NCBI GenBank assembly: GCA_045634485.1
Contig: JAZRAJ010000091.1
Location: 166-64,165 of the forward strand
Origin: Eubacteriales bacterium
GTDB lineage: Bacteria; Bacillota; Clostridia; Oscillospirales; CAG-272
DNA length: 64,000 bases
Direction of reading: 5' to 3'
The position numbers were made by a program, and so were the translations under genes. This document shows positions 2,341-24,028 of the stretch, piece after piece (the stretch's first letter is position 1; the number at the start of each line of letters is the position of its first letter). A model generated the notes under the pieces. It saw nothing but the letters and a program-made list of their open reading frames with translations. It had not been told where the DNA came from and made no database searches.

Positions 2341-2448
2341 TTAATAACTCGGATTATATGACTTTATTCTATTGTATCATTTCAATTAGACACACCTATG
2401 TCTTACTGTTTTGATAAAATAAAAACATCAAAAAAGGAGGCAATTTTC

Positions 2449-3420: not shown

Positions 3421-3465
3421 TATTTGCCATTTTTTTAATGTTTTCACGTGTGAGGTAGAAATGAT

Positions 3466-5931: not shown

Positions 5932-5954
5932 GAGGACGATGAAAGGAGATTGTC

Positions 5955-6860
5955 ATGCAATCTAAGGATATAGTAATGCAGGTTTCGGAAGAAACCGCTG
6001 AAGTAATGGAAGAAATATCAGAACAGCTTATGGAAGAATCTGATGCTCGTTTCGACGAAGTTGTGGAAGCCATCGAAGAAGCTGTAAAAAAAGTTGAAAG
6101 TCTCTATGCCGAGTTTACAGGCTATGCCGGTAATTCTAATAAGCAGCTAACATCAAACCAAGCGGAACTTATGGATAAGTTTGGTACTGTTTTGGATGCT
6201 ATTGGGGTGTTCAGAAAAGAAATTGGTGAACAAACAGTACAATCAAACGAAAAGGTTGATCGTTTGATTGTAATCATGGCTGATGTTCCCCAGCTCGTTC
6301 AAGCCGTTTCAAACAGCATCTCCGAATCCGCTGATGCGAGAGGCAAATTTGAAGCTACTCTTTTGGAAGATGTAAAGGGTCTTGCTCAAAGTCTTGTCGA
6401 ATTTCAGAAGCTTCAATCCGATGTTGTGGACAAGCTAAATGCTGATGACAGTCAAGAAAAGCTGATTTCTGCTCTAAATAAATTAACTGATATTGAAAAG
6501 GAAATTCTTCAAACCAAGGACGCTATCGGGAATGTTTCTGACACGCTTCGGAATTGTAGCACTCTTATCGAACAGCTTCTGTCCTCTGTGAAAGGCTTGC
6601 AGGAGAATGACGAAAAGATTCTTAATGTTGGTGAAGAAAACACCAAGAAGGCTGATGAGCTTGGAAAACAGACCGAGGAGACTTCAAAGCTACTCTTTGA
6701 AAAAATGGGCGATATATTGATCTATCTCGATACACTCTCCCATTCCGTTCAAACTATTTCGAAAAAGCAAAACGAACTCTGTGAAAAGCAAGCGGAGCTT
6801 GATAAAGATGTGAAATATTTGAAATTGCCATTCTTTAAAAGATGGTTTACGAAAGGATGA
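5955..6860 (+). CDS. acidic coiled-coil protein (301 aa) with a basic/aromatic C-terminal tail
   Basis: AAAGGAG RBS. E/D/Q/K-rich heptad-like sequence throughout. Ends in LKLPFFKRWFTKG. Its stop codon overlaps the next gene's start. Confidence 0.7.
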   Translation: MQSKDIVMQVSEETAEVMEEISEQLMEESDARFDEVVEAIEEAVKKVESLYAEFTGYAGNSNKQLTSNQAELMDKFGTVLDAIGVFRKEIGEQTVQSNEKVDRLIVIMADVPQLVQAVSNSISESADARGKFEATLLEDVKGLAQSLVEFQKLQSDVVDKLNADDSQEKLISALNKLTDIEKEILQTKDAIGNVSDTLRNCSTLIEQLLSSVKGLQENDEKILNVGEENTKKADELGKQTEETSKLLFEKMGDILIYLDTLSHSVQTISKKQNELCEKQAELDKDVKYLKLPFFKRWFTKG

Positions 6861-8704: not shown

Positions 8705-10500
8705 CTTTTTCTGACTTAAAGAAAAAACACGAAATCATTCAAAAGCTGATTGATGCTACAAACGATGAAGAACTTTCCACTTTGTCCAAGTTTATGCGTA
8801 GCAGAATTTCTTCTCCTGAAAGCTATGTTACGATGCTGGGTGAAACAAGTAGCGGAAAGACTACTTTAATCAACGGGCTTCTTAATGAACGACTTTTGAA
8901 AACAAGTGCAGTTCCAACTACAGGTGCAATCGTGGAAGTCCACTTTGATTCTGAGGTTACATCTCCAGAATATTATGCCATCAATCGTGATGCCACAATG
9001 GAGAGACTTGATGCAAATACTTTCGGGGATTTATCGAGTAATCCCGACGATTTGTTAGCAAGATTGCAAATTGCTGTTCCGGAAGTTAATGGTCTTGCTG
9101 GATTAAGATTGTTTGACACTCCTGGTTACGGTTCCATTGTGGATAAGCACGAGGAAGTTCTGCGAGAGTTCATTCCTAACAGCGATGTTATCATCTATGT
9201 TATTGGCTACAAAATCGGCATCCAAGAAAACGACTTTCTCTTTATGCGTTGCATCCAGGAGCTGATACACGATGATACGGATGTAATTGTTGTTGTAAAC
9301 CGTTGTCCTGCAACGGTCTCAGAAAAAGATAGACGTATGACGGAGATTCGCCGTTATGCAGAGGATTTGTTCCATAGGGATATTCCGATTTTTACTGTAG
9401 CAACCGAAACGAGCGATACCGGATATACGTTGCCTAAAGCTGCAAATTTGTGGGCTTATGTAAATAAATTGCTGAACTCTGCAGAGAGACAAGAAACGCT
9501 TATCAGTACACTCAACTCTTATCTGGATGACCTTTTGGCGCAGGCAGATAGCCTCATCGAAAAGCACGAGCTTGCAAACATCATGTCTCAAAAAGAGAAA
9601 GAGGAACTCAAAGCCTGTGCTGACGAGCTTCGTAGAAAAGGCAACGACATCGTAAATACGGAAATCACTCCTACGTTTGACCGCCTTATTGCAAATACAC
9701 CAAGATTGTTTGAACAGGCAAAGGAAACCATTCATGCGGAACTTTCTGAAGCTATTGCTGATGAAAGAACATGTCGCATGGATGAAACCATCGCTTTTGT
9801 AAATAACCACTCTCTCCCCATGGCAATTAACCGAGAAACCAAGGAGTATGAAAGACGGTTAATGCTGGAACTTGATGCAATGAATGAGCGTGTTGACGAT
9901 TATCTCAACGAGGCTATCGCTAACTACTACCATGAAATCGAACTTCATTTTGCAACAAACGCAGAGCTTGCAGCTCGTACAGGCGGAGGCAAAATCGTGG
10001 GTAAGATGATGGAAAACGGCTTGCGTCAATACTTTGCCGCTTTTGGCGGCGCTGGCGGTGCAGGTGCCGGTGTTGCAAACGCCGCAAAGCACTTGCTAAG
10101 TAAAACAGGAAAGCTTTTCGGTAAAAAATTCTCGCGCGAAACATACAACAAACTTGCTCACACTCTCAGTAAGATGAAATTCACGTCGCTTAAGGCAATT
10201 GGAAATGCTGTTACTGTAATAATTGAGGTTGCCCAGGTCATAATCGACTATTCGACGTGGAAGCCAAAGTTAAAGAAACAAGTCCGAAAAGGTTTGGGTG
10301 AGTGGTATGACAAGACCGTAGATACCGTAACCAAGGACTTGGAAAACCTTAAAGCTGAAAACATTAAAACACTGAAGGATATTATCGACGATATTGCCTC
10401 TACATACGAGCTGGAGGCAGAGGAAATGATTGAAAATATGCCAGAACTGATAGCGTTGAAAGCTGAAACACATAAGAAATTGGAGGAAGCAAAATTATGA
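8701..10500 (+). CDS. dynamin-like GTPase C (599 aa)
   Basis: AAGGAGG RBS and an ATGA overlap with the upstream stop. G1 GETSSGKTTLINGLLN. G3 RLFDTPGYGS. Degenerate G4 VVVNRCP. Gly-rich FAAFGGAGGAGAGVANAA (nt ~10035-10083). Confidence 0.85.
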   Translation: MTFSDLKKKHEIIQKLIDATNDEELSTLSKFMRSRISSPESYVTMLGETSSGKTTLINGLLNERLLKTSAVPTTGAIVEVHFDSEVTSPEYYAINRDATMERLDANTFGDLSSNPDDLLARLQIAVPEVNGLAGLRLFDTPGYGSIVDKHEEVLREFIPNSDVIIYVIGYKIGIQENDFLFMRCIQELIHDDTDVIVVVNRCPATVSEKDRRMTEIRRYAEDLFHRDIPIFTVATETSDTGYTLPKAANLWAYVNKLLNSAERQETLISTLNSYLDDLLAQADSLIEKHELANIMSQKEKEELKACADELRRKGNDIVNTEITPTFDRLIANTPRLFEQAKETIHAELSEAIADERTCRMDETIAFVNNHSLPMAINRETKEYERRLMLELDAMNERVDDYLNEAIANYYHEIELHFATNAELAARTGGGKIVGKMMENGLRQYFAAFGGAGGAGAGVANAAKHLLSKTGKLFGKKFSRETYNKLAHTLSKMKFTSLKAIGNAVTVIIEVAQVIIDYSTWKPKLKKQVRKGLGEWYDKTVDTVTKDLENLKAENIKTLKDIIDDIASTYELEAEEMIENMPELIALKAETHKKLEEAKL

Positions 10501-10913
10501 GTCGTGATTTTGAAATCGTTCAAAGTAGAAGAAATACCCCCACCCCTGCAGTAGACCAGGGAGATGTTACTGTTCTCCCTTCTTCTCAAAACAATTCTCG
10601 TATCGGAGATGCTATTGCAGATAACTTCGGTCAGATATTAGACCTTGCATCCAATATTGTTGAAATTGAGAAGATGAAGGTTCAGTCCGAGGCTGTATTG
10701 AAGCAGATGGAGGAATCCAGAAAGAATCTCTTGGCAGAGGCAGAGGCTTATGCCACTAAGAAAAATGCCGATACTGACAGCGTAATTCAGAAAATGCAGA
10801 TGGTCAGAGACATGATGCGTGATTTCTACCAGTACAACAACAATGCTAATCTGTCCGGCGAAGACTTCTCTCGCATAATCAGCAGCATTGTTAGTGAGAT
10901 GGGACGGTTATAA
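10497..10913 (+). CDS. hypothetical helical protein (138 aa), operon member
   Basis: ATGA overlap with the stop of the preceding GTPase gene. GGAGG RBS at 10482-10486. No family recognised. Confidence 0.65.
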   Translation: MSRDFEIVQSRRNTPTPAVDQGDVTVLPSSQNNSRIGDAIADNFGQILDLASNIVEIEKMKVQSEAVLKQMEESRKNLLAEAEAYATKKNADTDSVIQKMQMVRDMMRDFYQYNNNANLSGEDFSRIISSIVSEMGRL

Positions 10914-10914
10914 T

Positions 10915-11247
10915 ATGGTATCAATCGGTGGATTTGGCGATTTGTTTTCTGTTGTTTTAGCCGCTTCTAAGGATAAGGTTTATATGGAAACAGCCGAGAA
11001 AATGCAGGCTGCTTTTCATGAACTGATTCTTGCTGAGGCTGATGCAAGGCGAGATAAAACAGCTACGTTGATTCGTACCATGGCAAAAATCGATGGTGAG
11101 GTTATTCGATTTAAAATAGAATATAATCGTATTATTGAACAGTTATCACCAGAGGCTATAGCTGCAATTGATGGCTATTTGAAAATAATAGAGCAGAAGA
11201 AGAAAGATATTGCTCACGAAAAAAATGCAATGAAGGTTAGGAGGTAA
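10915..11247 (+). CDS. hypothetical helical protein (110 aa), operon member
   Basis: ATG lies 1 nt after the upstream stop. Same strand and compact spacing. No family recognised. Confidence 0.55.
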   Translation: MVSIGGFGDLFSVVLAASKDKVYMETAEKMQAAFHELILAEADARRDKTATLIRTMAKIDGEVIRFKIEYNRIIEQLSPEAIAAIDGYLKIIEQKKKDIAHEKNAMKVRR

Positions 11248-11775: not shown

Positions 11776-12357
11776 ATGATATTCGATTGGAAGAACAACA
11801 AAGAGGAAGCGTTAGCTAACGGTGTGTATGAGAAAAATATTTTATCTGTTGGCTTAGTTATGATGAAAACGACAAACAAGGTGGTTGCGCATCATACGTT
11901 CCGCAACTTTGAAAAGCTGGAATTTGAAGAGGGAACGCTCATTGAGGATTGCATTTTTGAGGATTGCGGCACGATTACGTTTAACGAGTGCAGAATTGAG
12001 AATTGCTCATTTTCTCGTATAGAATTTATTTATTCTACCGACGATTGCTTTAGCAATTCAAAGTTTTCAAAGTTGGTGTGCGATGATGATATGCTAATAA
12101 GCTTAGAGAACACAGAAATCACTCATTGTAGCTTTGATGACGTGGAGCTTCGTGAGGATTCCTATCTTTGCGATGGCGTTGGAACAGCGTGGATTGAGCA
12201 TTGTAGCTTTTCAAATATTCGCACAAGCAGAGAGGATAAGGAAATTATTATTAGCGAGCAAACTGTCGGTAAGATTTTCAAGCGCAAGGAGCAGTTTTGC
12301 ATTGTAGATGAAGAAACCTGCACCGGACTTGATTCTATTATTGAATTAGAGGATTGA
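11776..12357 (+). CDS. hypothetical protein with repetitive Cys/Phe-containing beta-helix-like repeats (193 aa)
   Basis: Repeats such as IEDCIFEDCGTITFNECRIENCSFSRIEF and ITHCSFDDVEL...IEHCSFSNIR resemble pentapeptide/beta-helix repeat proteins. The family assignment is not secure. Confidence 0.6.
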   Translation: MIFDWKNNKEEALANGVYEKNILSVGLVMMKTTNKVVAHHTFRNFEKLEFEEGTLIEDCIFEDCGTITFNECRIENCSFSRIEFIYSTDDCFSNSKFSKLVCDDDMLISLENTEITHCSFDDVELREDSYLCDGVGTAWIEHCSFSNIRTSREDKEIIISEQTVGKIFKRKEQFCIVDEETCTGLDSIIELED

Positions 12358-12384
12358 AGCTTTTAAAATGGTTTTTTCGCCCCT

Positions 12385-12414
12385 CAAAATTTGGGGCGCA
12401 TAAACAAAGAAGAA
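12385..12414 (+). repeat. cargo-slot boundary repeat, right copy, island B
   Basis: CAAAATTTGGGGCGCATAAACAAAGAAGAA. Partners at 2062-2090, 17001-17031 and 21932-21965. Confidence 0.8.
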
Positions 12415-12450
12415 GGATTTTTGAAATCAAGTAAATTTACGGTCATTATC

Positions 12451-12479: not shown

Positions 12480-12550
12480 CAAATAGAACGATATGTTCTT
12501 AAAATTGAAAGTGAGCTATCCGCCCATCTGTGAAAATGGGGAGCAAGGGT

Positions 12551-12611
12551 GAGCATCAGGAGATATTGTAGAGTTTTTCTGCGGTCTTTTGATGCTCATT
12601 TTTTTATTTTT
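12551..12611 (+). terminator. long-stem intrinsic terminator (conserved backbone element)
   Basis: GAGCATC (12551-12557) ... GATGCTC (12591-12597), followed by ATTTTTTTATTTTT. The homologue is at 22008-22067. Confidence 0.6.
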
Positions 12612-12956
12612 GCGAGTGGTGGTATATTTGAATTTCACTCATTTTGGAGTGATTTTGAGCCGAAAATTCCCGCCGTATTTTGTTGCAGGAATAAGGGCGA
12701 CGTCGTGTGCGACGTTTCGCCCGAACACATCGGTCGGCAACGCCGACCGTTCAAGGCTTTGTGAGGATTTCTTCTACGACGTCGTGTTGCGCAAATTTTT
12801 GGTGAAACAATGGCGTTTTGCGCAAAAATCTGCGTGAGCTTTAGAGTTGCAAGGCTTTGTTTTGCAGTCGTAAAAGTTTTTGCGTCAAATTTCAAAAAAT
12901 GCTGGATATATCGTGGAATTTGTGGTATTGTATGTGCTAACGAAAGGAGATTTTTT

Positions 12957-14177
12957 ATGGCAACTAAAAAACTATTAACTAACGGAAATGCGTTCAAGCG
13001 GACTGACGGTCGTTGGGGTGGTACGGTCTGGTATATGGATGAGTCGGGCGAGCGAAAACGCAAGAGCTTTTCGGGTACGATCAAGCAAGAGGTAAACAAG
13101 AAAATGACTGCCTATATTGAGGACTTCAACCGTGAAATTGAAAACTCAATCGAGGCGAACAAGACGCTAAAAGATAGTATGACGAATTTGCTTCAAGTCT
13201 TTAAATTCCCGTCGGTCGAACGCACAACATACGATAGGTATGAGTGTACCGCCATCAATCAAATTTATCCGTTGATTGGGGAAAAAACGGTTGGGAATAT
13301 TTCTTCTGCCGATATAAAAAAAGTCCTCAATCATTGGATGAATGAGGGCTACGCATATACAACGGTCAAAAAAGTACACATTATTCTCGGTGAATATTTT
13401 AAATATCTCACTCAACAAGAGATGATAACGAAAAATCCTATGCTTTCAGCGCCGATGATTAAAAAGAGTAATTTCTATGCTATGCAGGACAAGGAAGATT
13501 TGCCGACGAGTGAAACGGTAACGATTTTCACGGCGGAAGAAATAGAAAAATTAAAGGCAGAGGCGAGCAAAACCTATAAGACTGGAAAGAAACTTTACCG
13601 CCAAGCGGGAGCGTATATTTTGATGCTAAACACGGGACTTCGAGCTGGCGAAATGTTGGGCGTTTTGAACGCAGATATTGACCTTGAGAGGCGAGTTCTG
13701 CACTTGCAAAGGGGAGTAAAGGTTGTGAATAAACGCAACGGTGTGGAGCTTTTAGACGGCTCAACCGAGGTAAAGGTCGGAAAGCTGAAAAGTGCGACGA
13801 GCAAACGAGATATTCCGCTTAATGATGTTGCAATTCAAATGATAAAGGAGCTGCGAGCGGAGTTCTACTTTGGCGAGGACAGTCCGCTGATTTGCGACGA
13901 AAACGGAGATTTCACAAAACCCGATGTGTTCAGACGGAGATTTCACCGACTACTTGACGGAGCAGGGATAGAAAGCAAAGGTCTGCACGCACTACGTCAT
14001 ACGTTTGCGACAAACCTTGTAAACGGAGTAAGGCAACCCGACGGAACGGTTAAGGCGCTGACCGTAAGGCAAGTCGCAGATCTGCTCGGACATTCAACAA
14101 CGCAGGTAACCGAGATGTATTATGTGAAAAAGGATAACAAAATGCTGGGTGGGATAACGGATGGGTTTTGTTTGTGA
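12957..14177 (+). CDS. int: tyrosine integrase with N-terminal arm-binding domain (406 aa); copy 2 of 3
   Basis: AAAGGAG RBS. N-terminus FKRTDGRWGGTVWYMDESGERKRKSFSG resembles the Tn916-type arm-binding domain. Catalytic motifs: LRAGE, HALRHTFATN, LLGHS, EMYYV. Same length as copy 3 and closely collinear with it. Confidence 0.93.
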   Translation: MATKKLLTNGNAFKRTDGRWGGTVWYMDESGERKRKSFSGTIKQEVNKKMTAYIEDFNREIENSIEANKTLKDSMTNLLQVFKFPSVERTTYDRYECTAINQIYPLIGEKTVGNISSADIKKVLNHWMNEGYAYTTVKKVHIILGEYFKYLTQQEMITKNPMLSAPMIKKSNFYAMQDKEDLPTSETVTIFTAEEIEKLKAEASKTYKTGKKLYRQAGAYILMLNTGLRAGEMLGVLNADIDLERRVLHLQRGVKVVNKRNGVELLDGSTEVKVGKLKSATSKRDIPLNDVAIQMIKELRAEFYFGEDSPLICDENGDFTKPDVFRRRFHRLLDGAGIESKGLHALRHTFATNLVNGVRQPDGTVKALTVRQVADLLGHSTTQVTEMYYVKKDNKMLGGITDGFCL

Positions 14178-14405
14178 GGGGTTGCAGATTTTGTGAAAAT
14201 ATGATATAATGATCTTGTTTATCAAGAGTGTACGAAATAAAGCGAAAAATAAGAGTTTTGTGGTGTTTTATATAGAAAAAAGCAAAATGCAACCGGTAGT
14301 TGACACATTGAAAGCTGGCGGTTGGTAGTGTGCAAGTGCGATTTGTGCTATAATATAGGCACGATAAAGCGCAGGCTTTACGAATTTATCAAACGAGGTA
14401 TTTTT

Positions 14406-15206
14406 ATGATTTTGGCAGATAAGATTATTAGATTGCGAAAAAAGAATGGTTGGTCACAAGAGGAGCTTGCAGATAAAATGAATGTATCCAGACAAGCTGT
14501 TTCAAAATGGGAAAGTGCGCAAAGCATCCCCGATTTAGAAAAAATATTACAGCTTAGCAAGTTGTTTTGTGTTACAACAGATTATTTGTTAAAGGATGAT
14601 ATTGAGGATGAAGAATTTACGAATGATTCGTATGATGCGTCCGTTAAAAAAATCACCATAGAAGAGGCGAACATTTATCTCAATCAAAGAAAAAAAGCTT
14701 CTTGGCGTATTGCGCTTGCTACATTTTTATGCATTATATCTCCCATAACTCTCATTATTTTGACTATATTATCGGAACAACCTAATTCTATTGTAACGGA
14801 AATAACAGCATGCGTAATTGGATTAATTGTTTTGTTTGCTGTTGTTTTGTGTGCTGTTCCGATTTTTATCTATTGCGGATTTAAAAACCAGCCGTATGAA
14901 TTTCTTGATAAGAATATTCCATTTGAGCTTGAATACGGAGTTAGAGGATTGGTAAACGAAAAGAAGAAAGCTTTAAGAACTGCTTATGTTACTTATAATA
15001 TAATCGCAACCTGTTTATGTATTTTTTCTGTTATTCCACTAATTTTATTATCTTTTACGGAAAACGAGGTGCTTATTGCGGTTGCACTTGCTGTAGCTTT
15101 AGTTATTGTAGGTGTAGGCGTAGGAATGTTTATCGTAGTCGGAACTCAAAACGCAAGTATGCAAAGGCTTCTTAAAGAGGGGCACTTCGCTGAAAATCAG
15201 CGTTAA
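14406..15206 (+). CDS. membrane-anchored XRE-family HTH protein (266 aa)
   Basis: GAGG RBS before ATG 14406. HTH_3 motif (IRLRKKNGWSQEELADKMNVSRQAVSKWESAQSIPDLEKILQLSKLF), followed by about 4 hydrophobic helices. Confidence 0.8.
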   Translation: MILADKIIRLRKKNGWSQEELADKMNVSRQAVSKWESAQSIPDLEKILQLSKLFCVTTDYLLKDDIEDEEFTNDSYDASVKKITIEEANIYLNQRKKASWRIALATFLCIISPITLIILTILSEQPNSIVTEITACVIGLIVLFAVVLCAVPIFIYCGFKNQPYEFLDKNIPFELEYGVRGLVNEKKKALRTAYVTYNIIATCLCIFSVIPLILLSFTENEVLIAVALAVALVIVGVGVGMFIVVGTQNASMQRLLKEGHFAENQR

Positions 15207-15232
15207 AATAAAGATTTTACGGAGATAGTTAT

Positions 15233-15766
15233 ATGAAAAATAAAAATACTGATTTTAAAGAAATTGGTGGTTTTAGCGTTAATGACAAGAAACCACAAAC
15301 GGTATTGTCGGTAATGTTTTTGCTGATAGCAGGTGTTGGCGCAGGTATTGTGTTTCTTACTCAAGCATATGCAAACAATGTCGTTCCCGTTTGGGTAATA
15401 ATATTGTCGGTAATTGCTTTTATCATCATACACGAATTGATACACATTGTATTTATGTCTGCTTTTTCAAAAGGTAAGATTAATGCTAAAATCAAATTTC
15501 CTACGATAGCTGTTGGTTCAGATGCGTATTTTAGTAAAGTGCAATATGTAATTATCGCATTAGCGCCTGTTATTATTTTGGGAATAGCGAGCTTGATTTG
15601 CTTATTATTGCTTCCACACAAGCTATTATTCTCTATATTATTAGTATTAAATTTTGCTACTGCAAGTGGAGATTATATTTTAACTTATTATGCATTAAAG
15701 CAAAATAAGAATACATATTTTGTGGATATGGCAGAAAAAACAATAATTTATTCACAATGCGATTGA
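15233..15766 (+). CDS. polytopic membrane protein with HExxH motif (DUF3267-like putative zincin peptidase)
   Basis: IIHELIHIVF (HELIH) at a helix end. Several TM helices. 177 aa. Confidence 0.65.
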   Translation: MKNKNTDFKEIGGFSVNDKKPQTVLSVMFLLIAGVGAGIVFLTQAYANNVVPVWVIILSVIAFIIIHELIHIVFMSAFSKGKINAKIKFPTIAVGSDAYFSKVQYVIIALAPVIILGIASLICLLLLPHKLLFSILLVLNFATASGDYILTYYALKQNKNTYFVDMAEKTIIYSQCD

Positions 15767-15840
15767 TTATAAATGTATTGAGTAAATTGGATATGATATA
15801 ATAATTGTGTTAGTGAATAGTTTAATGAGGTAGTTTATAC

Positions 15841-16446
15841 ATGAATAAATATGAAAAACGTTCCCAAAAAAACTATGATAAAAAAGCAGAAAAATACGAT
15901 TCTACATTTGACGGAAAATTTACTGTAAAATTAAATGAAACCTTATGTGATATGATTTCGACAAATGATGAAGATATTATAGCTGATGTTGCTTGCGGTA
16001 ACGGACGCTTGTTGTATATGCTCGCTCAAAAAAAATCGTTTAAAGGATATGGCGTTGATCTTTCTGAAAAGATGATTTTAGAAGCGAAAAAGCAAAATCC
16101 TAAAATGGATTTTTTCGTTGCGGGGTGTGAAAATCTTCCGTTTAAAAATCAAGAAATAGATATAATGACGGTTTGTGCAGCATTTCATCATTTTCCGGAT
16201 ATTCAAAAATTTGCCCAAGAAGCAGGTAGAGTGATAAAGAAAAATGGAGAATTATATATCGCAGATGTATATTTGCCCACATTTTTCAGATTGATATGTA
16301 ATCCATTTGTGAAGTTGTCAAAATCCGGTGATGTTAAATTTTATTCGCCAAAAGAAATTGTTGAACTGTTTGAAAATAATGGCTTTGTAAAAAATAGCGT
16401 TGAAATAAAAGGTAAGTTTCAACTTATAAAATTACAAAGAATTTGA
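15841..16446 (+). CDS. class I SAM-dependent methyltransferase (201 aa)
   Basis: Motif I DVACGNGRLL. Post-I GVDLSEKM. Methyltransf_11-like layout. Confidence 0.8.
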   Translation: MNKYEKRSQKNYDKKAEKYDSTFDGKFTVKLNETLCDMISTNDEDIIADVACGNGRLLYMLAQKKSFKGYGVDLSEKMILEAKKQNPKMDFFVAGCENLPFKNQEIDIMTVCAAFHHFPDIQKFAQEAGRVIKKNGELYIADVYLPTFFRLICNPFVKLSKSGDVKFYSPKEIVELFENNGFVKNSVEIKGKFQLIKLQRI

Positions 16447-16747: not shown

Positions 16748-16781
16748 AAAAAAGCCCAACGCGATTGCGTTAGGCTTTTTT
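16748..16781. terminator. bidirectional hairpin terminator abutting the tRNA-fragment repeat
   Basis: Same sequence as 1810-1843. Confidence 0.6.
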
Positions 16782-16783
16782 CT

Positions 16784-16828
16784 TGGCAGGGGCGGGAGGA
16801 CTCGAACCCGCGACCCACGGTTTTGGAG
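16784..16828 (-). repeat. 45-bp direct repeat of the tRNA-Trp 3' part; att junction between island B and island A
   Basis: Identical to 1846-1890 and 23953-23997. Confidence 0.95.
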
Positions 16829-17000
16829 TGGCTTAAAAGTGCCGTGAAGCCTTGAAAATGCTCGCTTTTTTGCACGTTTCAACGCACTTTTCACACTAAA
16901 CCACGTGTCGTAATTGTGTCTGAAAATTTTTGATGCTTTTTTGATGATATGATAAAATTTCAGCTTACATATTAGCCGCTAACGTACTTTTGACGCTCCT
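16829..17000. repeat. conserved integrase-distal island arm (non-coding)
   Basis: Aligns with 1891-2061. Contains TTGATGC-N5-TTGATGA at 16930-16948. Confidence 0.85.
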
Positions 17001-17031
17001 CAAAATTTGGGGAGCTATAAACAAAGAAGAA
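17001..17031 (+). repeat. cargo-slot boundary repeat, left copy, island A
   Basis: CAAAATTTGGGGAGCTATAAACAAAGAAGAA. Confidence 0.8.
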
Positions 17032-17099
17032 TAATTTATAAAGATGAAAGGCTTAATGTAAAGAAAAAATAATTATTTTAATAAAGATACTTTACTTTT

Positions 17100-17128
17100 A
17101 CGCTGAAATGTGATATAATTTTCAGCGT
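17100..17128 (+). promoter_or_regulatory. abiE promoter -10 embedded in a 9-bp inverted repeat (putative AbiEi operator)
   Basis: ACGCTGAAA-tgtgaTATAAT-TTTCAGCGT. TATAAT is at 17114-17119, and the ATG is 18 nt after the repeat. Confidence 0.55.
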
Positions 17129-17145
17129 AAAAGGTAGGTGGTTTT

Positions 17146-17739
17146 ATGACAAAGACGGAAAAGTTAAATGATTTAATTAAATTAAGTAATGGATATCTTT
17201 ATATTGCCGATGCGGAGAAGCTTGGTATTTCTAAGGTTTATATTCGAGAATACGTTCTTGCTAACAATCTTGAACGTGTGGCGCATGGATTATATAAGTC
17301 TTCTGATGTTTGGACGGATGATCTCTATATTTTGACATTTAATAATAAAAAAGCGGTATATTCATTTGATACTGCTCTTATGTTAAATGGGCTAACCGAG
17401 CGAGAGCCATCGGAAATATTCGTCACTGTATCAAGATCATACAATGCTTCGCACTTGCGTAGTAAGGGTATTATTGTTAATTATGTTAAAGATGAATGGT
17501 TAGATTTAGGGCGAACTGTTGCTAAAACCGTCTATGGGAATGAAGTGTCGGTTTATGATATGGAGAGAACGATTTGCGATATTATTCGTGTGAGGGATAA
17601 AAAAGATCCGCAGATGTTTACCTATGCTATAAAAGAATACGCAAAAAGTGCAAATAAGAATCTCCCAAGACTTATGAAATATGCAAAGGAATTCGGCGTA
17701 GAAGCGGAATTGCGTAAATATATGGAGGTGTTGTTGTGA
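17146..17739 (+). CDS. abiEi: AbiEi-family antitoxin / transcriptional regulator (197 aa)
   Basis: N-terminal winged-helix-like LIKLSNGYLYIADAEKLGISKVYIREYVLANNLERVAHGLY. GTGA overlap with the downstream AbiEii gene. Size and order are typical of AbiE pairs. Confidence 0.8.
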   Translation: MTKTEKLNDLIKLSNGYLYIADAEKLGISKVYIREYVLANNLERVAHGLYKSSDVWTDDLYILTFNNKKAVYSFDTALMLNGLTEREPSEIFVTVSRSYNASHLRSKGIIVNYVKDEWLDLGRTVAKTVYGNEVSVYDMERTICDIIRVRDKKDPQMFTYAIKEYAKSANKNLPRLMKYAKEFGVEAELRKYMEVLL

Positions 17740-18599
17740 TTATAAAGACATCAAGACAACTCAAGGATAAGGTATCGAATCTATCGGGAAATGACAGCAA
17801 GAAAGCGCAGACATTGATAAGAAAATATATGATGGAACGCTTCCTCGCAAGAATATCCCATTCAAAGTATAAAAACAACTTCATCCTCAAGGGTGGAATG
17901 CTCGTTTCTGCGCTTGTAGGCGTAGAATCAAGGGCTACTATGGATATTGATACAACCGTAAGAATGTTGCCTTTAACAAAGGATAATGCAATTGAAGTGA
18001 TTGCCGAAATTATGAAAATAGATCTTGATGACGATATTTCCTATGAAATCAAAAAGGCTGAGGATATTATGGAAGAACACGACTATTCAGGCGTTCGTTT
18101 TACCATTTCGGTAACGCTTGAGAAGCTGCGTGATACCATTAAAATTGACATTTCCACCGGTGATGAAATAACGCCATCTGCTATTGAATTTTCTTATCCT
18201 ATGATGTTTGACGACGAAAGGATTAATATTTGGTCATATAATCTTGAAACTATGCTTGCAGAGAAGCTTGAAACTGTTATTGCAAGATCAACGCTTAATA
18301 CGAGGATGCGTGATTTTTACGATATACATATATTATGGTCAGAAAAAGCAAATATGATCAATATTGAAACGCTTCGTCGTGCAATTATCAATGTTGCTCG
18401 TAAGAGAGGAACTCTTGAACTCTTTGATAATATGGATGAAATTCTTGATGATATTGTGGAAAGCGATTATCTTCGTAATAATTGGAATAATTATAGAAAA
18501 GGCAGTTACTATGTTGGTGACCTTGAATGGGCGGATGTGCTTGAAATAACAGTTAATATACTAAAAAATGAGATTGGAAGCTTGAGCGTTAAGGCGTGA
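17736..18599 (+). CDS. abiEii: AbiEii/AbiGii-family nucleotidyltransferase toxin (287 aa)
   Basis: GTG start overlapping the upstream stop. FILKGGMLVSALVG...RATMDIDT nucleotidyltransferase motif. ETMLAEKLETV and FYDIHIL are typical of the DUF1814 family. Confidence 0.85.
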   Translation: MIIKTSRQLKDKVSNLSGNDSKKAQTLIRKYMMERFLARISHSKYKNNFILKGGMLVSALVGVESRATMDIDTTVRMLPLTKDNAIEVIAEIMKIDLDDDISYEIKKAEDIMEEHDYSGVRFTISVTLEKLRDTIKIDISTGDEITPSAIEFSYPMMFDDERINIWSYNLETMLAEKLETVIARSTLNTRMRDFYDIHILWSEKANMINIETLRRAIINVARKRGTLELFDNMDEILDDIVESDYLRNNWNNYRKGSYYVGDLEWADVLEITVNILKNEIGSLSVKA

Positions 18600-18640
18600 A
18601 AAGATGATTTTATAGTTAAATAAATTATTGCGAGGTTATT

Positions 18641-21600
18641 ATGTCTGAAACGGATAATAAAAAATCAATTATAGATAATATCACACTTAAAGAGCTGATA
18701 GAAAAATATGGATTGCCGATAGATGTGAAAAAATCGTGGTGGTTTGGCGATTACTATTTTCGTGCAGAAAAAATTCAGCATACAGGCGTTGTTGCGGGTA
18801 CAATTTTTAAAGATGGGAAAATACATGAGTCTAAAAGTTTTTCTCAAGGTGAGATTATGCAATTATTGACTCCTTCATCAATTGAAGAAAGTAAAAGTGC
18901 AAAAAAGAAATCTTATATATTCTTGCCTAATCCAAACAAATTGGATACCGATATTACGCATTATATCAAGGGAGAAACTAAACTTTTTGTTAAAAGTGGC
19001 AATTCAATCAAAGTTGCTATTTTTGACCATTTTAGAGAGAAAAATGATCAACTTCTCATATATGTGATTCCAGAAGGGGCAATAAATGTGAAATTCTATC
19101 CTTTCCCACAAAGTGAATTAGTATTTCCAAATAAGGATGATGCCAGAAGTAAAATTGATAAAGAAAGTCGTCGATTTGAAATTTCGCATTCTCGTAATAT
19201 TGTTTCTGCATTTAAGAAAAAACCTAAATCGCGTAAGCCTTCTGAAAATACATCTGATGAGTATGAATATGAACGTGGATATCATCAAAAAGTGGATAGT
19301 AAATTAGAGGATGATTTGCGCATTCCTGAAGAAAATAAACGTGTCGCTCAATACGATTTGGCTTATGCAGATGAAGAATTAAGAGAAGAAATTGTTTCTG
19401 CTCGTGAAAATAAATATATTGTTGACGATCATACTATAATTTCACACAAAATAAGAAAGGAAACTGCTGATTCTCGTATTCTTTCTGCACAAGATGAGAT
19501 ATTAAGAATACGAGGAATACGCAGTAAACCTTATTTTGCACGAATAGATTGTGGAGAAAGTATGCGAGATTTGCATACAGTTTATCTTGGAAATGATGAT
19601 ATTGATGGATATGTTGTTTCTTGGAAAAATGCTGAATACGGTAATGCATATTATCAATCTTCTGTGCTTCAAGGACGACAAGATATTGTTTTAGCTTTAA
19701 AACGTATTGTGGATATTACATATGGTGATTTCAAGGGATATGAAGATGAGATTTCATTATATGCCGATGGTGACATTTTTGAAAAAACAGAGAATGAAAT
19801 TGTTGAAGGAAAGACCGACGAACTTTTGAATAGATTGTTGCTCGAAAGTCGTGCGGATAAGCAAGTCCATGATATTATTAAAACCATACAAGGTGAGCAG
19901 TACGATATTATAACAGCGGATTTCAGAAAAAATGTAATAGTTAACGGATGCGCTGGTTCCGGAAAGACAATGATTATGTACCATCGCCTTTCCTATATGG
20001 CGTATAATTATCAATTATATCTTGGAAAAACACTTGACACTAATTTAGTATATATAATATCTCCGTCGCCGTTTTTTGATTCAAGTAATGATGAATTGTT
20101 AACAAAATTATCAATCGGTACAGTTTATCAAGCGCCATTTTCTAATTTTGTGGATAAACTTCTTGATTTATATTGTTCAAAAAAATCAATAATACCATTC
20201 TATGGATTAACGTCTTACTTGGATGCTCTTGGAGATAGTCCATCTGAATTTTTTAATACGAATGAGTTTAACTCGTTTACCGATGTTATTGAGGCGGTTG
20301 ATGAAAACACTTTGTTATATAAACAATGGGCACTTTCTTTGATAAATCAATTTTTAACGGCACAGAATTTCAAAAAAATTGATTTTGAAGTGATTGCAAA
20401 ATATGCAAATGAGGCTTCTACTTTTTTCTCTTCCTCGGATTATTATTATAATGAGTGTTTTGCAAATAAGAATAATGGTGAAACTAAATATTATTCAAAA
20501 CAAGCCATTGTTGGAATATCTATGGAAAATGTAATCGCTGCTTTAAATACGAAGCATGGAAAATCAAGTGCTATATACAAGCAAAGATTGAAGAAAATAA
20601 CCAAGTATCTTTCTATACTAAGATGTTGTTTATCATTAAAAACAAAGAAAACTTTAGGATCAGAAATTTCAACGGATATATCTGATTTTTGGGACTTGCT
20701 TGATAATACAAAAGTGTTTGAAAAAATGCTGTCAATTATCCTTGCGGAAAGATTGTTTGAATGTATATCCACTTCTGTAAATGTGGAAAGAGGATATATG
20801 CTAAAGTGTTTATATGCTTTTCAAAATACATATAGTAAAAATGAATCTGAAGTTGTAAAATTATATTTTCTACATTCTCTTAGTAAAAAATATGGTGCTA
20901 TTGTATCCGAAGATGCTTTAGTTTTTGTCGATGAATTTCAAAATTATTCTGCTTTCGAGTTGCAATGTGTAAAAGAAGCTTATGAACATCCCGTATTTAA
21001 CCTTTTCGGTGATTACGATCAGCGCATAGAGGAAAAGGGAGCAAACTTGAAAGCTCAATTGAAATCAATTTTAGTAGAACCTAATATATATAATATCAAT
21101 GTGAATTATCGTAATGCGAAACAAATTACAGAATATATTAATAGATGTGTACATAAAAACATGCAATCAATAGGAGTAGATGGATCGGTTATCGAAGTTG
21201 CGCTCGAAGATTGTGATTTTAAACTATCTGATAGAACTGCAATTATTTGCAAGGATATTAAAATGGCATTAACATTTATTAAGCGATATATAGATGCTAA
21301 GCTAATAAATAATTCTACTTCTACTAAAGAATTGGCTATGGATAAATATACATTAATTACTGTTGATGATTCAAAAGGACTTGAATTTGATACTGTGTAT
21401 GTACTAGATTATGGAATGTCAGATAACGAAAAATATGTTGCATATACTCGTGCATTAGATACGCTTATTGTTATTTCAGATGATTTAGAAGCAATAAAAA
21501 AATCTGAAGAGGAGGCAGAGAAAAAAAGAAGAGAGCAGGAACGGTTAACATTAGAAACACGAAAAAAAGAAGAAAATTTTCAAAAACATATTGTTGAGGA

Positions 21601-21874
21601 AAATGCTGAATATGAATTTGAAGAAGAAAAAATAAAAATTCGTGAAGAAGCTGAACGTAAACTACGTATGGAAATTGAACGTCAAGTTCGTGAAGAGATT
21701 GCACATGAAATTCGCGAAGAAATTGAACATCAACTAAGAGAAGAAGCAGATGTTGCTGAGAAGAGAAAAAAAGAATATAATCGAATGTGTAATGTTTGTC
21801 AATATTGTGGAGGACGTTTTAAGGGATTGCTCGTTAAGCGTTGCTCTGCTTGTGGTAAACGAAAAGATTATTAA
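18641..21874 (+). CDS. HelD-like UvrD-family (SF1) helicase with unassigned N-terminal domain, C-terminal E/K/R coiled coil and 4-Cys zinc ribbon (1077 aa)
   Basis: HelD-type segment KPYFARIDCGE...TVYLGNDDIDGYVVSWKNAEYGNAYYQS. Walker A GCAGSGKT (19946-19969). DEFQN Walker B. GLEFDTVYVL...YVAYTRALDTLIVI. Tail REEIAHEIREEIEHQLREE, then CNVCQYCGG...CSACGKR. Confidence 0.8.
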   Translation: MSETDNKKSIIDNITLKELIEKYGLPIDVKKSWWFGDYYFRAEKIQHTGVVAGTIFKDGKIHESKSFSQGEIMQLLTPSSIEESKSAKKKSYIFLPNPNKLDTDITHYIKGETKLFVKSGNSIKVAIFDHFREKNDQLLIYVIPEGAINVKFYPFPQSELVFPNKDDARSKIDKESRRFEISHSRNIVSAFKKKPKSRKPSENTSDEYEYERGYHQKVDSKLEDDLRIPEENKRVAQYDLAYADEELREEIVSARENKYIVDDHTIISHKIRKETADSRILSAQDEILRIRGIRSKPYFARIDCGESMRDLHTVYLGNDDIDGYVVSWKNAEYGNAYYQSSVLQGRQDIVLALKRIVDITYGDFKGYEDEISLYADGDIFEKTENEIVEGKTDELLNRLLLESRADKQVHDIIKTIQGEQYDIITADFRKNVIVNGCAGSGKTMIMYHRLSYMAYNYQLYLGKTLDTNLVYIISPSPFFDSSNDELLTKLSIGTVYQAPFSNFVDKLLDLYCSKKSIIPFYGLTSYLDALGDSPSEFFNTNEFNSFTDVIEAVDENTLLYKQWALSLINQFLTAQNFKKIDFEVIAKYANEASTFFSSSDYYYNECFANKNNGETKYYSKQAIVGISMENVIAALNTKHGKSSAIYKQRLKKITKYLSILRCCLSLKTKKTLGSEISTDISDFWDLLDNTKVFEKMLSIILAERLFECISTSVNVERGYMLKCLYAFQNTYSKNESEVVKLYFLHSLSKKYGAIVSEDALVFVDEFQNYSAFELQCVKEAYEHPVFNLFGDYDQRIEEKGANLKAQLKSILVEPNIYNINVNYRNAKQITEYINRCVHKNMQSIGVDGSVIEVALEDCDFKLSDRTAIICKDIKMALTFIKRYIDAKLINNSTSTKELAMDKYTLITVDDSKGLEFDTVYVLDYGMSDNEKYVAYTRALDTLIVISDDLEAIKKSEEEAEKKRREQERLTLETRKKEENFQKHIVEENAEYEFEEEKIKIREEAERKLRMEIERQVREEIAHEIREEIEHQLREEADVAEKRKKEYNRMCNVCQYCGGRFKGLLVKRCSACGKRKDY

Positions 21875-21881
21875 AATATCT

Positions 21882-21909
21882 TTTTTAGTTTTTAGTTTTT
21901 AGTTTTTAG
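21882..21909 (+). repeat. tandem heptamer (TTTTTAG)x4
   Basis: Read directly, just after the helicase stop codon. Confidence 0.9.
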
Positions 21910-21931
21910 TTTGGCTAATTGGTTTACTTCT

Positions 21932-21965
21932 CCAAATTTGGGGCGCAATAAACAAAGAAAAAGAA
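21932..21965 (+). repeat. cargo-slot boundary repeat, right copy, island A
   Basis: CCAAATTTGGGGCGCAATAAACAAAGAAAAAGAA. Confidence 0.8.
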
Positions 21966-22007
21966 ATTTTCAAAATCAAGCGTTTTTTAGATGTGCAAAA
22001 CAATAGT

Positions 22008-22067
22008 GAGCATCAGAAGAATTTACGGAGTTTATCCGTGTTCTTTCGATGCTCATTTTTTGTTTTT
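22008..22067 (+). terminator. long-stem intrinsic terminator (conserved backbone element)
   Basis: GAGCATC-AGAAGAA-TTT-ACGGA-GTTTA-TCCGT-G-TTCTTTC-GATGCTC, followed by ATTTTTTGTTTTT. Confidence 0.65.
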
Positions 22068-22470
22068 GAGAGTGGAGAATAATTCTAATTTCGCTCATTT
22101 ATGGGCAATTTTGAGCCGAAAATCTCCGCCGTATTTTTTTGCAGGAATAAGCAAAGTCACCTTTCGGCGACTTTTGCGTTTTACATCGGTCGGCAACGCC
22201 GACCGAAAAGGGCGAAAAAGGCAGATGCTGCAAGGGCTTTTGAGGTTCGGGCGTGGGTGATTTTTGTTTTTTGAATTAGGGACAATTTTTCGAGTTTGTA
22301 GAGCCATTGGGGACAAGATTGCGAAAAAGTCCCATATTACAAGGAAAGTTGCGGCGACTTTCGTGCGCATTTAAAATAATTGTGTCTTGTATGATAACTT
22401 TTTCAAAATCGCTGGATATTCGAAAAATCTTGTGGTATTGTTGTAGTAAAAAAGTAAAGGAGGTTTAATT

Positions 22471-23691
22471 ATGGCAACTAAAAAACTATTAACTAACGGA
22501 AATGCATTCAAGCGGACTGACGGTCGGTGGGGCGGTACTGTTTGGTTTATGGATGAGTCGGGCGAGCGTAAGCGAAAGAGTTTTTCGGGTACGACCAAGC
22601 AAGAGGTAAACAAGAAAATGACCGCCTATATTGAAGATTTTAACAATGAAATTGAAAACTTAATCGAGGCGAACAAGACGCTCAAAGAGAGTATGACGAA
22701 TTGGTTGCAAGTTTTCAAATTTCCGTCGATCGAGCGCACAACATACGATAGGTATGAGTGTACTGCAATCAATCAAATATACCCATTGATTGGGGAGAAA
22801 ACGGTCGGAAATATTTCTTCTGCCGACATTAAAAAAGTCCTCAATCATTGGATGAATGAGGGCTATGCCTATACAACGGTTAAAAAGGCGCACGTTATTC
22901 TCGGCGAGTATTTTAAATACTTGACTCAACAAGAGCTGATAAATAAAAATCCTATGCTATCCGCGCCGATGATTAAAAAGAGTAATTTTTATGCGATTCA
23001 AGAAAAGGAAGAATTGCCGACAGCCGAAAGCATTACGATTTTTACATCGGAAGAAATAGAAAAATTAAAGGCGGAAGCAGCGAAATCATACGCAACCGGA
23101 AAGAAGCTTTACCGCCAAGCAGGGGCGTATATTCTTATGCTCAACACGGGCTTGCGAGCTGGCGAGATGTTGGGCGTTTTGAACGCAGATATTGACATTG
23201 AGAGGCGAGTTTTACATCTTCAAAGGGGAGTAAAGGTTGTAAACAAACGCAACGGTGTGGAGCTTATTGACGGCTCTGTTGAGGTTAAGGTCGGCAAGCT
23301 AAAAAGTGCGACGAGCAAACGAGATATTCCGCTAAATGATGTCGCAATTCAAATGATAAAGGAGTTGCGAGAGGAGTTTTATTTCGGCGAGGATAGTCCG
23401 CTGATTTGCGACGAGAATGGAAATTACACCAAACCCGACGTGCTCAGACGGAGATTCCACCGACTTCTCGACGGAGCGGGGATAGAGAGTAGGGGTCTGC
23501 ACGCGCTACGCCATACCTTTGCGACCAACCTCGTCAACGGAGTAAGGCAACCTGACGGAACGATTAAGGCTCTGACCGTCAGACAAGTCGCCGACCTGCT
23601 CGGACACTCAACAACGCAGGTGACCGAGATGTATTATGTGAAAAAGGATACAAGTATGCTCACTGGCATCACTAATGACTTCTGCCTATAA
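22471..23691 (+). CDS. int: tyrosine integrase with N-terminal arm-binding domain (406 aa); copy 3 of 3, adjacent to the intact tRNA
   Basis: AAGGAGG RBS. Same motifs as copy 2. The stop codon is 261 bp from the tRNA-Trp 3' end. Confidence 0.93.
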   Translation: MATKKLLTNGNAFKRTDGRWGGTVWFMDESGERKRKSFSGTTKQEVNKKMTAYIEDFNNEIENLIEANKTLKESMTNWLQVFKFPSIERTTYDRYECTAINQIYPLIGEKTVGNISSADIKKVLNHWMNEGYAYTTVKKAHVILGEYFKYLTQQELINKNPMLSAPMIKKSNFYAIQEKEELPTAESITIFTSEEIEKLKAEAAKSYATGKKLYRQAGAYILMLNTGLRAGEMLGVLNADIDIERRVLHLQRGVKVVNKRNGVELIDGSVEVKVGKLKSATSKRDIPLNDVAIQMIKELREEFYFGEDSPLICDENGNYTKPDVLRRRFHRLLDGAGIESRGLHALRHTFATNLVNGVRQPDGTIKALTVRQVADLLGHSTTQVTEMYYVKKDTSMLTGITNDFCL

Positions 23692-23914
23692 TGACTCAAA
23701 AATTGCGTCGGAGTAAGCAAAGAAAAAGGTGACCGCAGAAAACGAAAATCTGCGGTCTCCTTGATGCTCTTTTGACGCTCATGATACTTTTTTGATGCTG
23801 TACTGTACGGAAATAGTGGCACACAATGTGATAAATGGCACGATTGTGCTTTCGTGTTGATTGAGAAAACGGTTGAAAAAGTAGATAGAAAACCGCTTTT
23901 GTACAGAAAAACAC

Positions 23915-23948
23915 AGAAAAAAAGAAAACCGAAGCCTTTCGACTTCGG
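23915..23948 (-). terminator. intrinsic terminator of tRNA-Trp, supplied by island A sequence
   Basis: Minus strand reads CCGAAG-TCGAAAGG-CTTCGG, followed by TTTTCTTTTTTT, starting 4 nt after the CCA end. Confidence 0.7.
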
Positions 23949-23952
23949 TTAT

Positions 23953-24028
23953 TGGCAGGGGCGGGAGGACTCGAACCCGCGACCCACGGTTTTGGAGACC
24001 GGTACTCTACCAACTGAGCTACACCCCT
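23953..24028 (-). tRNA. trnW: tRNA-Trp (anticodon CCA), 76 nt with encoded CCA
   Basis: Reverse complement is AGGGGTGTAGCTCAGTTGGTAGAGTACCGGTCTCCAAAACCGTGGGTCGCGGGTTCGAGTCCTCCCGCCCCTGCCA. Acceptor stem AGGGGTG/CGCCCCT. Anticodon loop CU-CCA-AA. T-loop TTCGAGT. Discriminator G. Confidence 0.93.

Follow-up and report, generated by a model that had tools for sequence, protein, structure and literature searches.

The stretch of DNA studied here (the window) comprises 64,000 nucleotides from a Eubacteriales bacterium (GTDB lineage Bacteria; Bacillota; Clostridia; Oscillospirales; CAG-272; contig JAZRAJ010000091.1 of assembly GCA_045634485.1, forward-strand positions 166 to 64,165). It carries, on a small integrative island that we call island A, a gene encoding a 1077-amino-acid protein related to HelD. 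HelD proteins are known for putting stalled RNA polymerase back into use, either as housekeeping factors or in antibiotic resistance. The open reading frame starts with ATG, ends with a stop codon and is preceded, 7 nucleotides upstream, by a GAGG ribosome-binding site (Table 1). About 55 full-length relatives, 28-98% identical, fall in the same length class and share its motifs, indicating that the gene is real. All these relatives are metagenomic, and none of them carries a name in any source.

Two copies of the 3' end of a tRNA-Trp gene delimit island A, and the interval between them (16829-23948) contains only abiEi, abiEii, the HelD-like gene and a tyrosine integrase gene. Thus, the statement of an earlier reading of this DNA, made from the letters alone (the sequence-only reading), that the HelD-like gene and AbiE are the only cargo of the island holds. 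The cargo has a GC content of 0.29-0.35 versus about 0.45 in the flanks. AbiEi and AbiEii were both recognised by PADLOC (1.6e-65 and 1.4e-96, respectively), and AbiEii also by Pfam (3e-41). The sole good promoter-like site lies upstream of abiEi (17091-17119), and no terminator-like site was found in the 41-bp gap between abiEii and the HelD-like gene, so that co-transcription of abiE and the HelD-like gene is possible in the window.

Table 1. Window coordinates of island A, its genes and the segments of the HelD-like protein (AF2, AlphaFold2 model)
Feature	Position	Strand	Evidence or remark
attL of island A	16780-16828		49-nucleotide copy of the tRNA-Trp 3' end, 98% identical to 23949-23997
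abiEi (17146-17739) and abiEii (17736-18599)	17146-18599	+	directly 5' of the HelD-like gene
Complete HelD-like open reading frame	18641-21874	+	1077 amino acids; about 55 full-length homologues
N-terminal module, residues 1-195	18641-19225	+	two predicted beta-barrels, AF2
Secondary-channel-arm-like hairpin, residues ~197-296	19229-19528	+	AF2; family profile to HelD residues 2-103
HelD-specific beta 'torso', residues 297-405, with KPYFARIDCG and Trp-cage W328	19529-19855	+	
First half of SF1 domain 1A, residues 406-499, with Walker A	19856-20137	+	
All-helical insertion in 1A, residues ~500-752, at the clamp-arm position	20138-20896	+	AF2, profile, Foldseek
Second half of 1A and domain 2A, residues 753-945	20897-21475	+	SF1 motifs
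Charged long helix, residues 946-1049	21476-21787	+	includes 24-nucleotide tandem repeat 21636-21745
Four-Cys zinc ribbon, residues 1050-1077	21788-21871	+	CQxCGGxFKG...CxxCGKxKDY
Tyrosine integrase of island A	22471-23691	+	Pfam Phage_integrase 6.6e-18
tRNA-Trp gene	23953-24028	-	attR at 23949-23997

A predicted HelD core

The motifs on which the sequence-only reading relied were all located in the protein: the superfamily 1 (SF1) motifs GCAGSGKT (residues 436-443), VDEFQN (763-768) and YVAYTRALDTL (932-942), and, in the HelD-type segment that precedes them, KPYFARIDCGE (296-306) and VYLGNDDIDGYVVSWKNAEYGNAYYQS (314-340). The ATPase motifs comprise Walker A (nucleotides 19946-19969), DEFQ (764-767), GDYDQRI (790-796), NYRNA (822-826), KGLEFD (912-917) and YVAYTRA (932-938). 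Residues G436-T443, among them the Walker A lysine K442, are invariant across 56 family sequences, as is W328; Walker A, DEFQ and motifs III, IV and VI are invariant or at least 90% conserved when 28-56 family sequences are compared.

We then asked which SF1 family these motifs belong to. Pfam returned weak SF1 fragments only. The NCBIfam model HelD_BACSU (NF041464) matched with an E-value of 1.2e-26, and a search of the PDB sequences with the single protein found the B. subtilis HelD chain 6wvk_H (1.4e-15), in agreement with the HelD/helicase-IV-type segment described from the sequence. With a profile of 56 family members, the match to 6wvk_H reached 1.9e-41 and aligned HelD residues 2-458 and 540-753. 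An AlphaFold2 model of the full protein was built on the family alignment (mean predicted local distance difference test, pLDDT, 83; predicted template modelling score, pTM, 0.72) and compared with the PDB by Foldseek, in which 6wvk_H again came out on top (2.9e-25, 846 columns), followed by M. smegmatis HelD (about 1e-17) and PcrA/UvrD/Rep (about 1e-10). The gap of about 15 orders of magnitude to PcrA/UvrD, together with the HelD-specific arms described below, indicates that the protein is HelD-like rather than generically UvrD-like.

In the model, the chain runs from two barrels through a hairpin, a beta segment, the first half of domain 1A with Walker A and a helical insertion to the rest of 1A, domain 2A, a very long helix and a zinc ribbon. 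The predicted hairpin is made of two antiparallel helices (204-256 and 263-295, pLDDT about 90), and in the family profile residues 197-296 align with B. subtilis HelD residues 2-103, which form the secondary channel arm. The first ~290 residues had been reported as resembling nothing recognisable; this proved right for residues 1-195, whereas the hairpin that follows them is the part that aligns with HelD. In B. subtilis HelD, an acidic tip (D56/D57) reaches the active site of the polymerase via the secondary channel (PMC7749167). The hairpin tip of our protein, ARENKYIVDDH, is acidic (E256, D262, D263), and the family keeps the pattern ARE[ND]..x..DDH. The second arm is helical, is inserted at residues ~500-752 between Walker A and DEFQ, and aligns in part with HelD residues 303-458 in the profile.

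Other landmarks of B. subtilis HelD are W137, which sits in the 'Trp cage' holding the arm on the motor, the Walker A lysine K239 and a clamp arm in place of domain 1B (PMC7749167, PMC8655204). Counterparts of D56/D57, W137, K239 and the clamp arm are all present in our protein. The Trp-cage motif DWR, usually DWR[A/S]P, has been called absolutely conserved in HelD (PMC8655204); at this position, about half of the family has DWR, the clade of our protein SWR and the protein itself SWK (SWK-N-A). Taken as modelled, residues ~197-945 are a complete class-I-type HelD core, which is probably active. The protein is a homologue of HelD, alike in core architecture, and not an equivalog, given a model score far below the cut-off, the altered DWR, extra domains at both ends, a larger size and a different ecology.

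N-terminal barrels and a variable charged tail

The part of the protein that precedes the HelD core is predicted to consist of two Tudor/SH3-like barrels, ND1 (residues ~15-72) and ND2 (residues ~105-176), separated by a disordered linker (residues 78-93). When residues 1-200 were modelled separately, the pLDDT was 85. NPNxLD and FPNKDDA are the conserved motifs of this module. No Pfam match to it was obtained in any of 25 family members, and no sequence match in the PDB. The best structural match in the PDB by Foldseek was the 53BP1 tandem Tudor (1e-3), followed by the SETDB1 Tudor, the MRG15 chromodomain and the KIN SH3-like tandem domain, while the viral library BFVD gave weak, uninformative matches only. 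A profile of the module retrieved 78 proteins, 14 of them below 1e-30, from 1.84 billion cluster representatives, indicating that the module is rare.

The same profile search led to ND1-bearing proteins of other architectures (P0128, P0146 and P0177). ND1 recurs alone on other HelD-like cores, once at the C-terminus; elsewhere, three copies are found on a DuOB (dual-OB) protein, and another lies in the N-terminal region of an SNF2 helicase (residues ~127-253), ahead of the helicase domains. This shuffling among different proteins suggests that ND1 is an adaptor or sensor domain working with nucleic-acid motors. In PcrA/UvrD and Mfd, Tudor domains are known to hold the motor to the beta subunit of RNA polymerase (PMC8318588), and, by analogy, the barrels of our protein could be a comparable tether to the polymerase.

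At the other end of the protein, residues 946-1049 are modelled as one long helix in which D, E, K and R make up 58% of the residues. The near-repeat pointed out there in the sequence-only reading was confirmed at residues 1001-1035 and is real in the DNA too, where a 24-nucleotide unit is present in about four copies (70-74% matches) that encode EIREEIEH-type units. The cysteines of the C-terminal CxxC...CxxC ribbon were likewise found where expected (C1053/C1056 and C1068/C1071). Among the relatives the tail measures from 0 to 355 amino acids, indicating that it evolves by expansion and contraction, and the zinc ribbon is kept in the roughly 40 closest relatives and absent from distant ones. 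Scanned against Pfam at E<=10, the tail matched generic zinc-ribbon families only, all of them sub-threshold.

Genomic contexts of the family

To describe the surroundings of the gene in other genomes, we read 13 contexts including the window, chosen for their long contigs and thus not a statistical survey. Defence or mobile-element genes adjoin a family member in 12 of them, so that we do not consider the protein a housekeeping HelD orthologue in a conserved chromosomal setting, the outcome that would have refuted the sequence-only reading. The first context is the window, with AbiE on a tRNA-Trp island. The closest informative relative, P0002 (70% identical), has AbiL-like genes, a Fic gene directly upstream and a LexA-like repressor gene downstream. 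P0003 is preceded by a methyltransferase, a ResIII/YagJ, a HEPN-SNF2 and a TmtA/Tiamat gene (PADLOC 1.6e-59), and followed by genes for a Macro protein with a helix-turn-helix (HTH)-like domain (Macro-HTH), a NYN protein, a VWA-like protein, an ADP-ribosylhydrolase and a free C-terminal domain of the RNA polymerase alpha subunit (alpha-CTD). Around P0021 we found a resolvase gene and the same four genes (Macro-HTH, VWA-like protein, ADP-ribosylhydrolase and alpha-CTD, the latter frameshifted), in a block flanked by housekeeping genes. An Eco57I-type methyltransferase, DruE (5.9e-118), a UvrD-like gene and Macro-HTH surround P0014; McrBC, two NUDIX genes, RhuM and HIT surround P0020.

P0051 lies with a caspase gene, a full Gabija pair and genes for an AAA_11/12-DUF2726 protein, a KAP NTPase, RmuC, GIY-YIG, WYL, NERD and PLD proteins. 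Near P0026 are a C5 methyltransferase gene, a DUF6339 cluster, a resolvase and an integrase gene; near P0048, an NgoFVII-type restriction-modification pair and a DUF6339 cluster; and near P0033, genes for a WHH nuclease, a Schlafen/AlbA_2 protein and an ADP-ribosylhydrolase. P0029 is carried by an element with RepA_N and relaxase genes, and P0022 by a phage, in which it is the gene after an SPP1-type holin gene, beside nucleotide-metabolism and replication genes. The context of P0053 is uninformative, its contig ending there. In the P0022 phage (L005/L006), a 251-amino-acid gene lies just downstream of the family member, which itself stands between the holin gene and an opposite-strand block encoding dUTPase, NrdD, ClpP and Pol III alpha.

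The defence neighbours identified by PADLOC or Pfam are AbiE, TmtA, DruE, Gabija, McrBC, AbiL, restriction-modification and Schlafen-like genes, in a small sample that does not amount to a statistical test. Homologues do lie near defence genes other than AbiE, a point that the sequence-only reading had proposed to check, and the pattern fits an accessory gene carried by defence islands and mobile elements. Since the neighbours change from context to context, the gene looks like a self-contained unit. The cooperation with AbiE that had been suggested from the window was not supported: AbiE is adjacent in the window only and in none of the 12 other contexts. A three-gene cluster that may be an undescribed system stands beside two distant family members and encodes proteins of about 620-637 and 295 amino acids and a DUF6339 protein (L012 2561-6100; L177 6289-9741).

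Larger collections were scanned for further members. The family profile returned 80 loci from the GTDB genome contigs; all of them are ordinary HelD homologues of about 700 amino acids that match residues ~245-947 at 25-38% identity and carry no N-terminal module, so that no true family member was present among the 80 loci returned for the species representatives. A scan of metagenome contigs gave no new contexts among the matches listed, which were dominated by the common CAGSGKTM pattern. No family match was found in 2.9 million viral contigs, and the annotated phage and plasmid collections contained no full-length member, the HelD-core matches there covering residues ~200-530 only. A paper on serine-recombinase markers makes no mention of such a HelD-like gene.

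Within the family, one group of loci shares more than the HelD-like gene. P0003, P0014 and P0021 each have a Macro protein for a neighbour; these Macro proteins are orthologues (73% and 54% identical) with a common C-terminal HTH-like domain. Their HelD-like neighbours are 57% and 46% identical to each other, and the surrounding genes differ. The P0003 and P0021 loci have in common an ADP-ribosylhydrolase at 55% identity, a VWA-like protein at 68% identity, the latter also found beside P0020, and a small free-standing alpha-CTD homologue (Pfam PF03118, 4.9e-17). In the P0021 locus (L004), the frameshifted alpha-CTD gene is directly upstream of the HelD-like gene. The gene set lies at L001 13586-19998, L004 5309-9853, L009 13717-14769 and L094 6127-6867, and none of the Macro-HTH, VWA-like, ADP-ribosylhydrolase and alpha-CTD genes is present in the window. 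It is striking that a free alpha-CTD should accompany a putative polymerase-binding motor together with two enzymes that remove ADP-ribose. Phage T4 Alt and ModA ADP-ribosylate the alpha subunit of RNA polymerase, and a testable link to this modification is suggested by the Macro, ADP-ribosylhydrolase and alpha-CTD genes that travel with the motor. With a sample of two to three related loci, we treat the association as a lead and not as a result.

In the window itself, island A is not alone at the tRNA-Trp gene. A third copy of the 49-nucleotide 3' end was found at 1842-1890, and each of the three fragments has a related integrase gene before it (1-810, 12957-14177 and 22471-23691); the island A integrase is 91% identical at the protein level to the copy at 12957-14177 and 89% identical to the partial copy at the window edge (1-810). 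The repeated tRNA fragments, each with its related integrase, indicate that positions 1-24028 are three tandem integrative islands of one family. The preceding island (2398-11247) carries a gene for a WYL/WCX regulator (2398-3420) and three for dynamin-like GTPases (3466-5931, 6842-8704 and 8701-10500), and the third of these, the sole dynamin scanned, matches the LeoA/LeoBC (Eleos-type) models of PADLOC. The tRNA-Trp neighbourhood of the window is thus a composite defence locus.

Several smaller features were seen in this region. A repeat of about 50 nucleotides, a GC-rich hairpin then ATAAACAAAGAAGAA, occurs at 12379-12431, 16996-17048 and 21927-21979, with a weaker copy at 2064-2088; it brackets the AbiE and HelD-like cargo, precedes each integrase module, and may mark a cargo-exchange boundary or a terminator. 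Small open reading frames follow the three dynamin genes (10497-11247), and a 193-amino-acid protein with weak pentapeptide and beta-helix matches is encoded at 11776-12357, just before the second integrase module. Between the second integrase and its tRNA fragment (14322-16446) lie genes for an HTH_3 multi-pass membrane protein, a DUF3267 putative zincin peptidase and an S-adenosylmethionine-dependent methyltransferase. An 89-amino-acid open reading frame at 21991-22260 was considered as a partner gene of the HelD-like gene and discarded: it lies across part of the conserved region upstream of the integrase, a region with a duplicate at 12549-12695, and no family match was found for it.

Possible function and relation to known systems

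RNA polymerase is, in our opinion, the likely partner of the HelD-like protein, and the contexts tilt the balance, less strongly, towards an anti-phage or anti-mobile-element role. Combining these two estimates, we give a probability of about 0.5 to the statement that the protein is a mobile, enlarged HelD-class polymerase-binding ATPase acting in defence. Such a protein would dock on the polymerase core as HelD does, the secondary channel taking up the hairpin and the main channel the inserted arm. Docking would open the clamp and expel DNA and RNA, in a cycle powered by ATP hydrolysis. The Tudor/SH3-like barrels and the zinc ribbon on its charged helix would supply targeting or sensing, and they might recognise a polymerase that a phage has modified or bound, or else a nucleic acid or protein of the phage. 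During infection, the outcome might be that the polymerase is stripped from phage templates, that transcription is shut off globally (abortive infection), or that the polymerase is freed from phage inhibitors. Most likely the protein works alone, AbiE being a separate system on the same island.

Two extensions of this proposal go further. In the stricter form, which we regard as doubtful, the HelD-derived motor is an immune effector on RNA polymerase that evicts or locks it once the barrels and the zinc ribbon sense infection. In the subclade described above, the motor may have become part of a multi-gene system centred on the polymerase, together with Macro-HTH, the ADP-ribosylhydrolase, the VWA-like protein and alpha-CTD. 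Such a module could sense or reverse phage ADP-ribosylation of alpha, with the free alpha-CTD as a decoy.

Several points weigh against a polymerase-directed defence protein. The HelD_BACSU score, 92.8 bits, falls far short of the equivalog cut-off of 419, the 'absolutely conserved' DWR reads SWK in the protein and SWR in its clade, and the Tudor-like assignment is based on a marginal Foldseek E-value of about 1e-3. The 13 contexts are a choice of long contigs, and mobile-DNA hotspots also gather non-defence genes. PADLOC 2.0 has no model for the protein, and no link of HelD-like proteins to phage defence was found in the literature, in a text search swamped by the word 'held'.

Other explanations have to be considered for a HelD-like gene with such neighbours. 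Another function of a mobile HelD could be the protection of RNA polymerase against rifamycin-type antibiotics or bacterial toxins, after the model of HelR, the gene being spread as a resistance gene. The HelD core of our protein is intact, resistance genes are typical cargo of mobile elements, actinobacterial HelD and HelR proteins make cells resistant to rifamycins, and in B. subtilis HelD increases resistance to rifampicin (PMC8655204, PMC10719064, PMC12802891). However, the neighbours of the family are defence systems and not resistance genes, no antibiotic-responsive element was seen (no search aimed at one was made), the PCh-loop mechanism of class II is inapplicable to a class-I-like architecture, and the NCBIfam HelR models gave only 52-53 bits against cut-offs of 750-1100, so that we hold this explanation to be unlikely. 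The members on a phage and on a relaxase-bearing element raise a different possibility, in which the motor serves the element or phage that carries it by clearing host polymerase from the carrier's own DNA. Doing so would settle transcription-replication conflicts while the element excises or replicates, redirect transcription at takeover, or overcome a defence of the host. P0022 stands in a phage genome just after a holin gene and beside a replication module, P0029 is on a RepA_N/relaxase element, the protein matches phrog_1967, a phage 'DNA helicase' family, at 3.9e-18, and small HelD-core matches exist in phage records. Yet the position after the lysis genes is also the classic slot of prophage defence 'morons', most contexts are chromosomal defence islands devoid of phage or replication genes, and island A has no replication module; with 0 matches in 2.9 million viral contigs and no full-length member in the annotated phage records, a service to the element appears improbable.

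It could also be that the likeness to HelD is ancestral only and that the protein is an SF1 helicase or translocase acting on phage nucleic acid, as GajB, the UvrD-like partners of Druantia or Nhi-type proteins do. The GajB models of PADLOC match at 1.6e-10 and the family profile matches GajB structures at 2e-8, the zinc ribbon and barrels could bind nucleic acid, and ND1 is also found on the SNF2 helicase and the dual-OB protein. The GajB matches are however confined to residues ~900-960, whereas the hairpin, the Trp-cage and the inserted arm, all specific to HelD, have been kept and are conserved; 1B/2B have given way to other parts, just as they have in HelD, and B. subtilis HelD lacks helicase activity (PMC8655204). 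Moreover, the protein has no nuclease domain and the family no fixed nuclease partner, and we consider this explanation quite improbable. As for AbiE, the protein might be the third component of an extended AbiE system, acting with the AbiEii nucleotidyltransferase toxin under AbiEi control. The three genes are the sole cargo of island A and are on the same strand, with the 41-bp gap, the lack of a terminator-like site and the promoter-like site before abiEi described above. This seems very unlikely, AbiE being an established self-sufficient two-gene system that stands beside a family member in 0 of 12 other contexts, with Fic and AbiL in its place in the relative that is 70% identical.

If the polymerase-binding defence ATPase that we favour is correct, the eviction of transcription complexes would be added to the ways in which bacteria are known to defend themselves, be it in immunity proper or in conflicts between mobile elements. 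An immune, polymerase-evicting HelD motor would be a defence principle not described so far, and it would give a handle on the question of how a cell detects that a phage has taken over its RNA polymerase. The double barrel at the N-terminus represents a new domain family, found on other motors too.

Finally, we compared the protein with the systems that it recalls. AbiE, a type IV toxin-antitoxin system for abortive infection (AbiEi/AbiEii), is adjacent on the same island and possibly on one transcript, but our protein is from a different protein family and the association occurs in no other context examined; with AbiE absent from 12 of 12 contexts outside the window, membership of that system was rejected. 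GajB of Gabija, which the sequence-only reading had cited for comparison, is likewise an SF1 ATPase of defence islands, with weak model matches. The comparison turned out to be a weak one: the PADLOC and PDB matches are limited to part of the protein, chiefly the last ~60 residues of domain 2A, and those of PADLOC cover only residues 898-961 and 760-850. In addition, HelD arms replace 1B/2B and island A has no GajA gene or GajA-type partner, so that GajB membership was rejected too; the complete Gabija pair beside one relative (L008) is a separate gene neighbour.

The Tudor domain at the C-terminus of PcrA/UvrD and the RNA-polymerase-interacting domain of Mfd share with our protein, as modelled, a small Tudor-type barrel, a flexible linker and a nucleic-acid motor (PMC8318588). 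The protein differs from them in having two barrels at its N-terminus with no detectable sequence similarity, and neither domain is among the best 50 Foldseek matches of the N-terminal module. Class II HelD/HelR (M. smegmatis, Streptomyces) belong to the same superfamily, follow the same polymerase-clearing logic and are the second-best structural match. Their channel arm is short and their clamp arm bears a PCh-loop, whereas our protein has the long class-I hairpin; membership of class II was rejected on this ground and on that of the HelR model scores. Class I HelD (B. subtilis YvgS/HelD; 6WVK, 6ZCA) is the best match in both sequence and structure, with the same domain order over about 750 residues and with W328 and K442 corresponding to W137 and K239. 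Identity in the structural alignment is however 17-18%, and our protein adds the 195-residue double-barrel N-terminus and the charged helix and zinc ribbon of about 130 residues. It is 1077 amino acids long versus 650-940 in described HelDs, and it is found on mobile islands amid defence genes, whereas most helD genes described so far lie outside mobile elements (PMC8655204). The protein is a new architectural and ecological variant of HelD.

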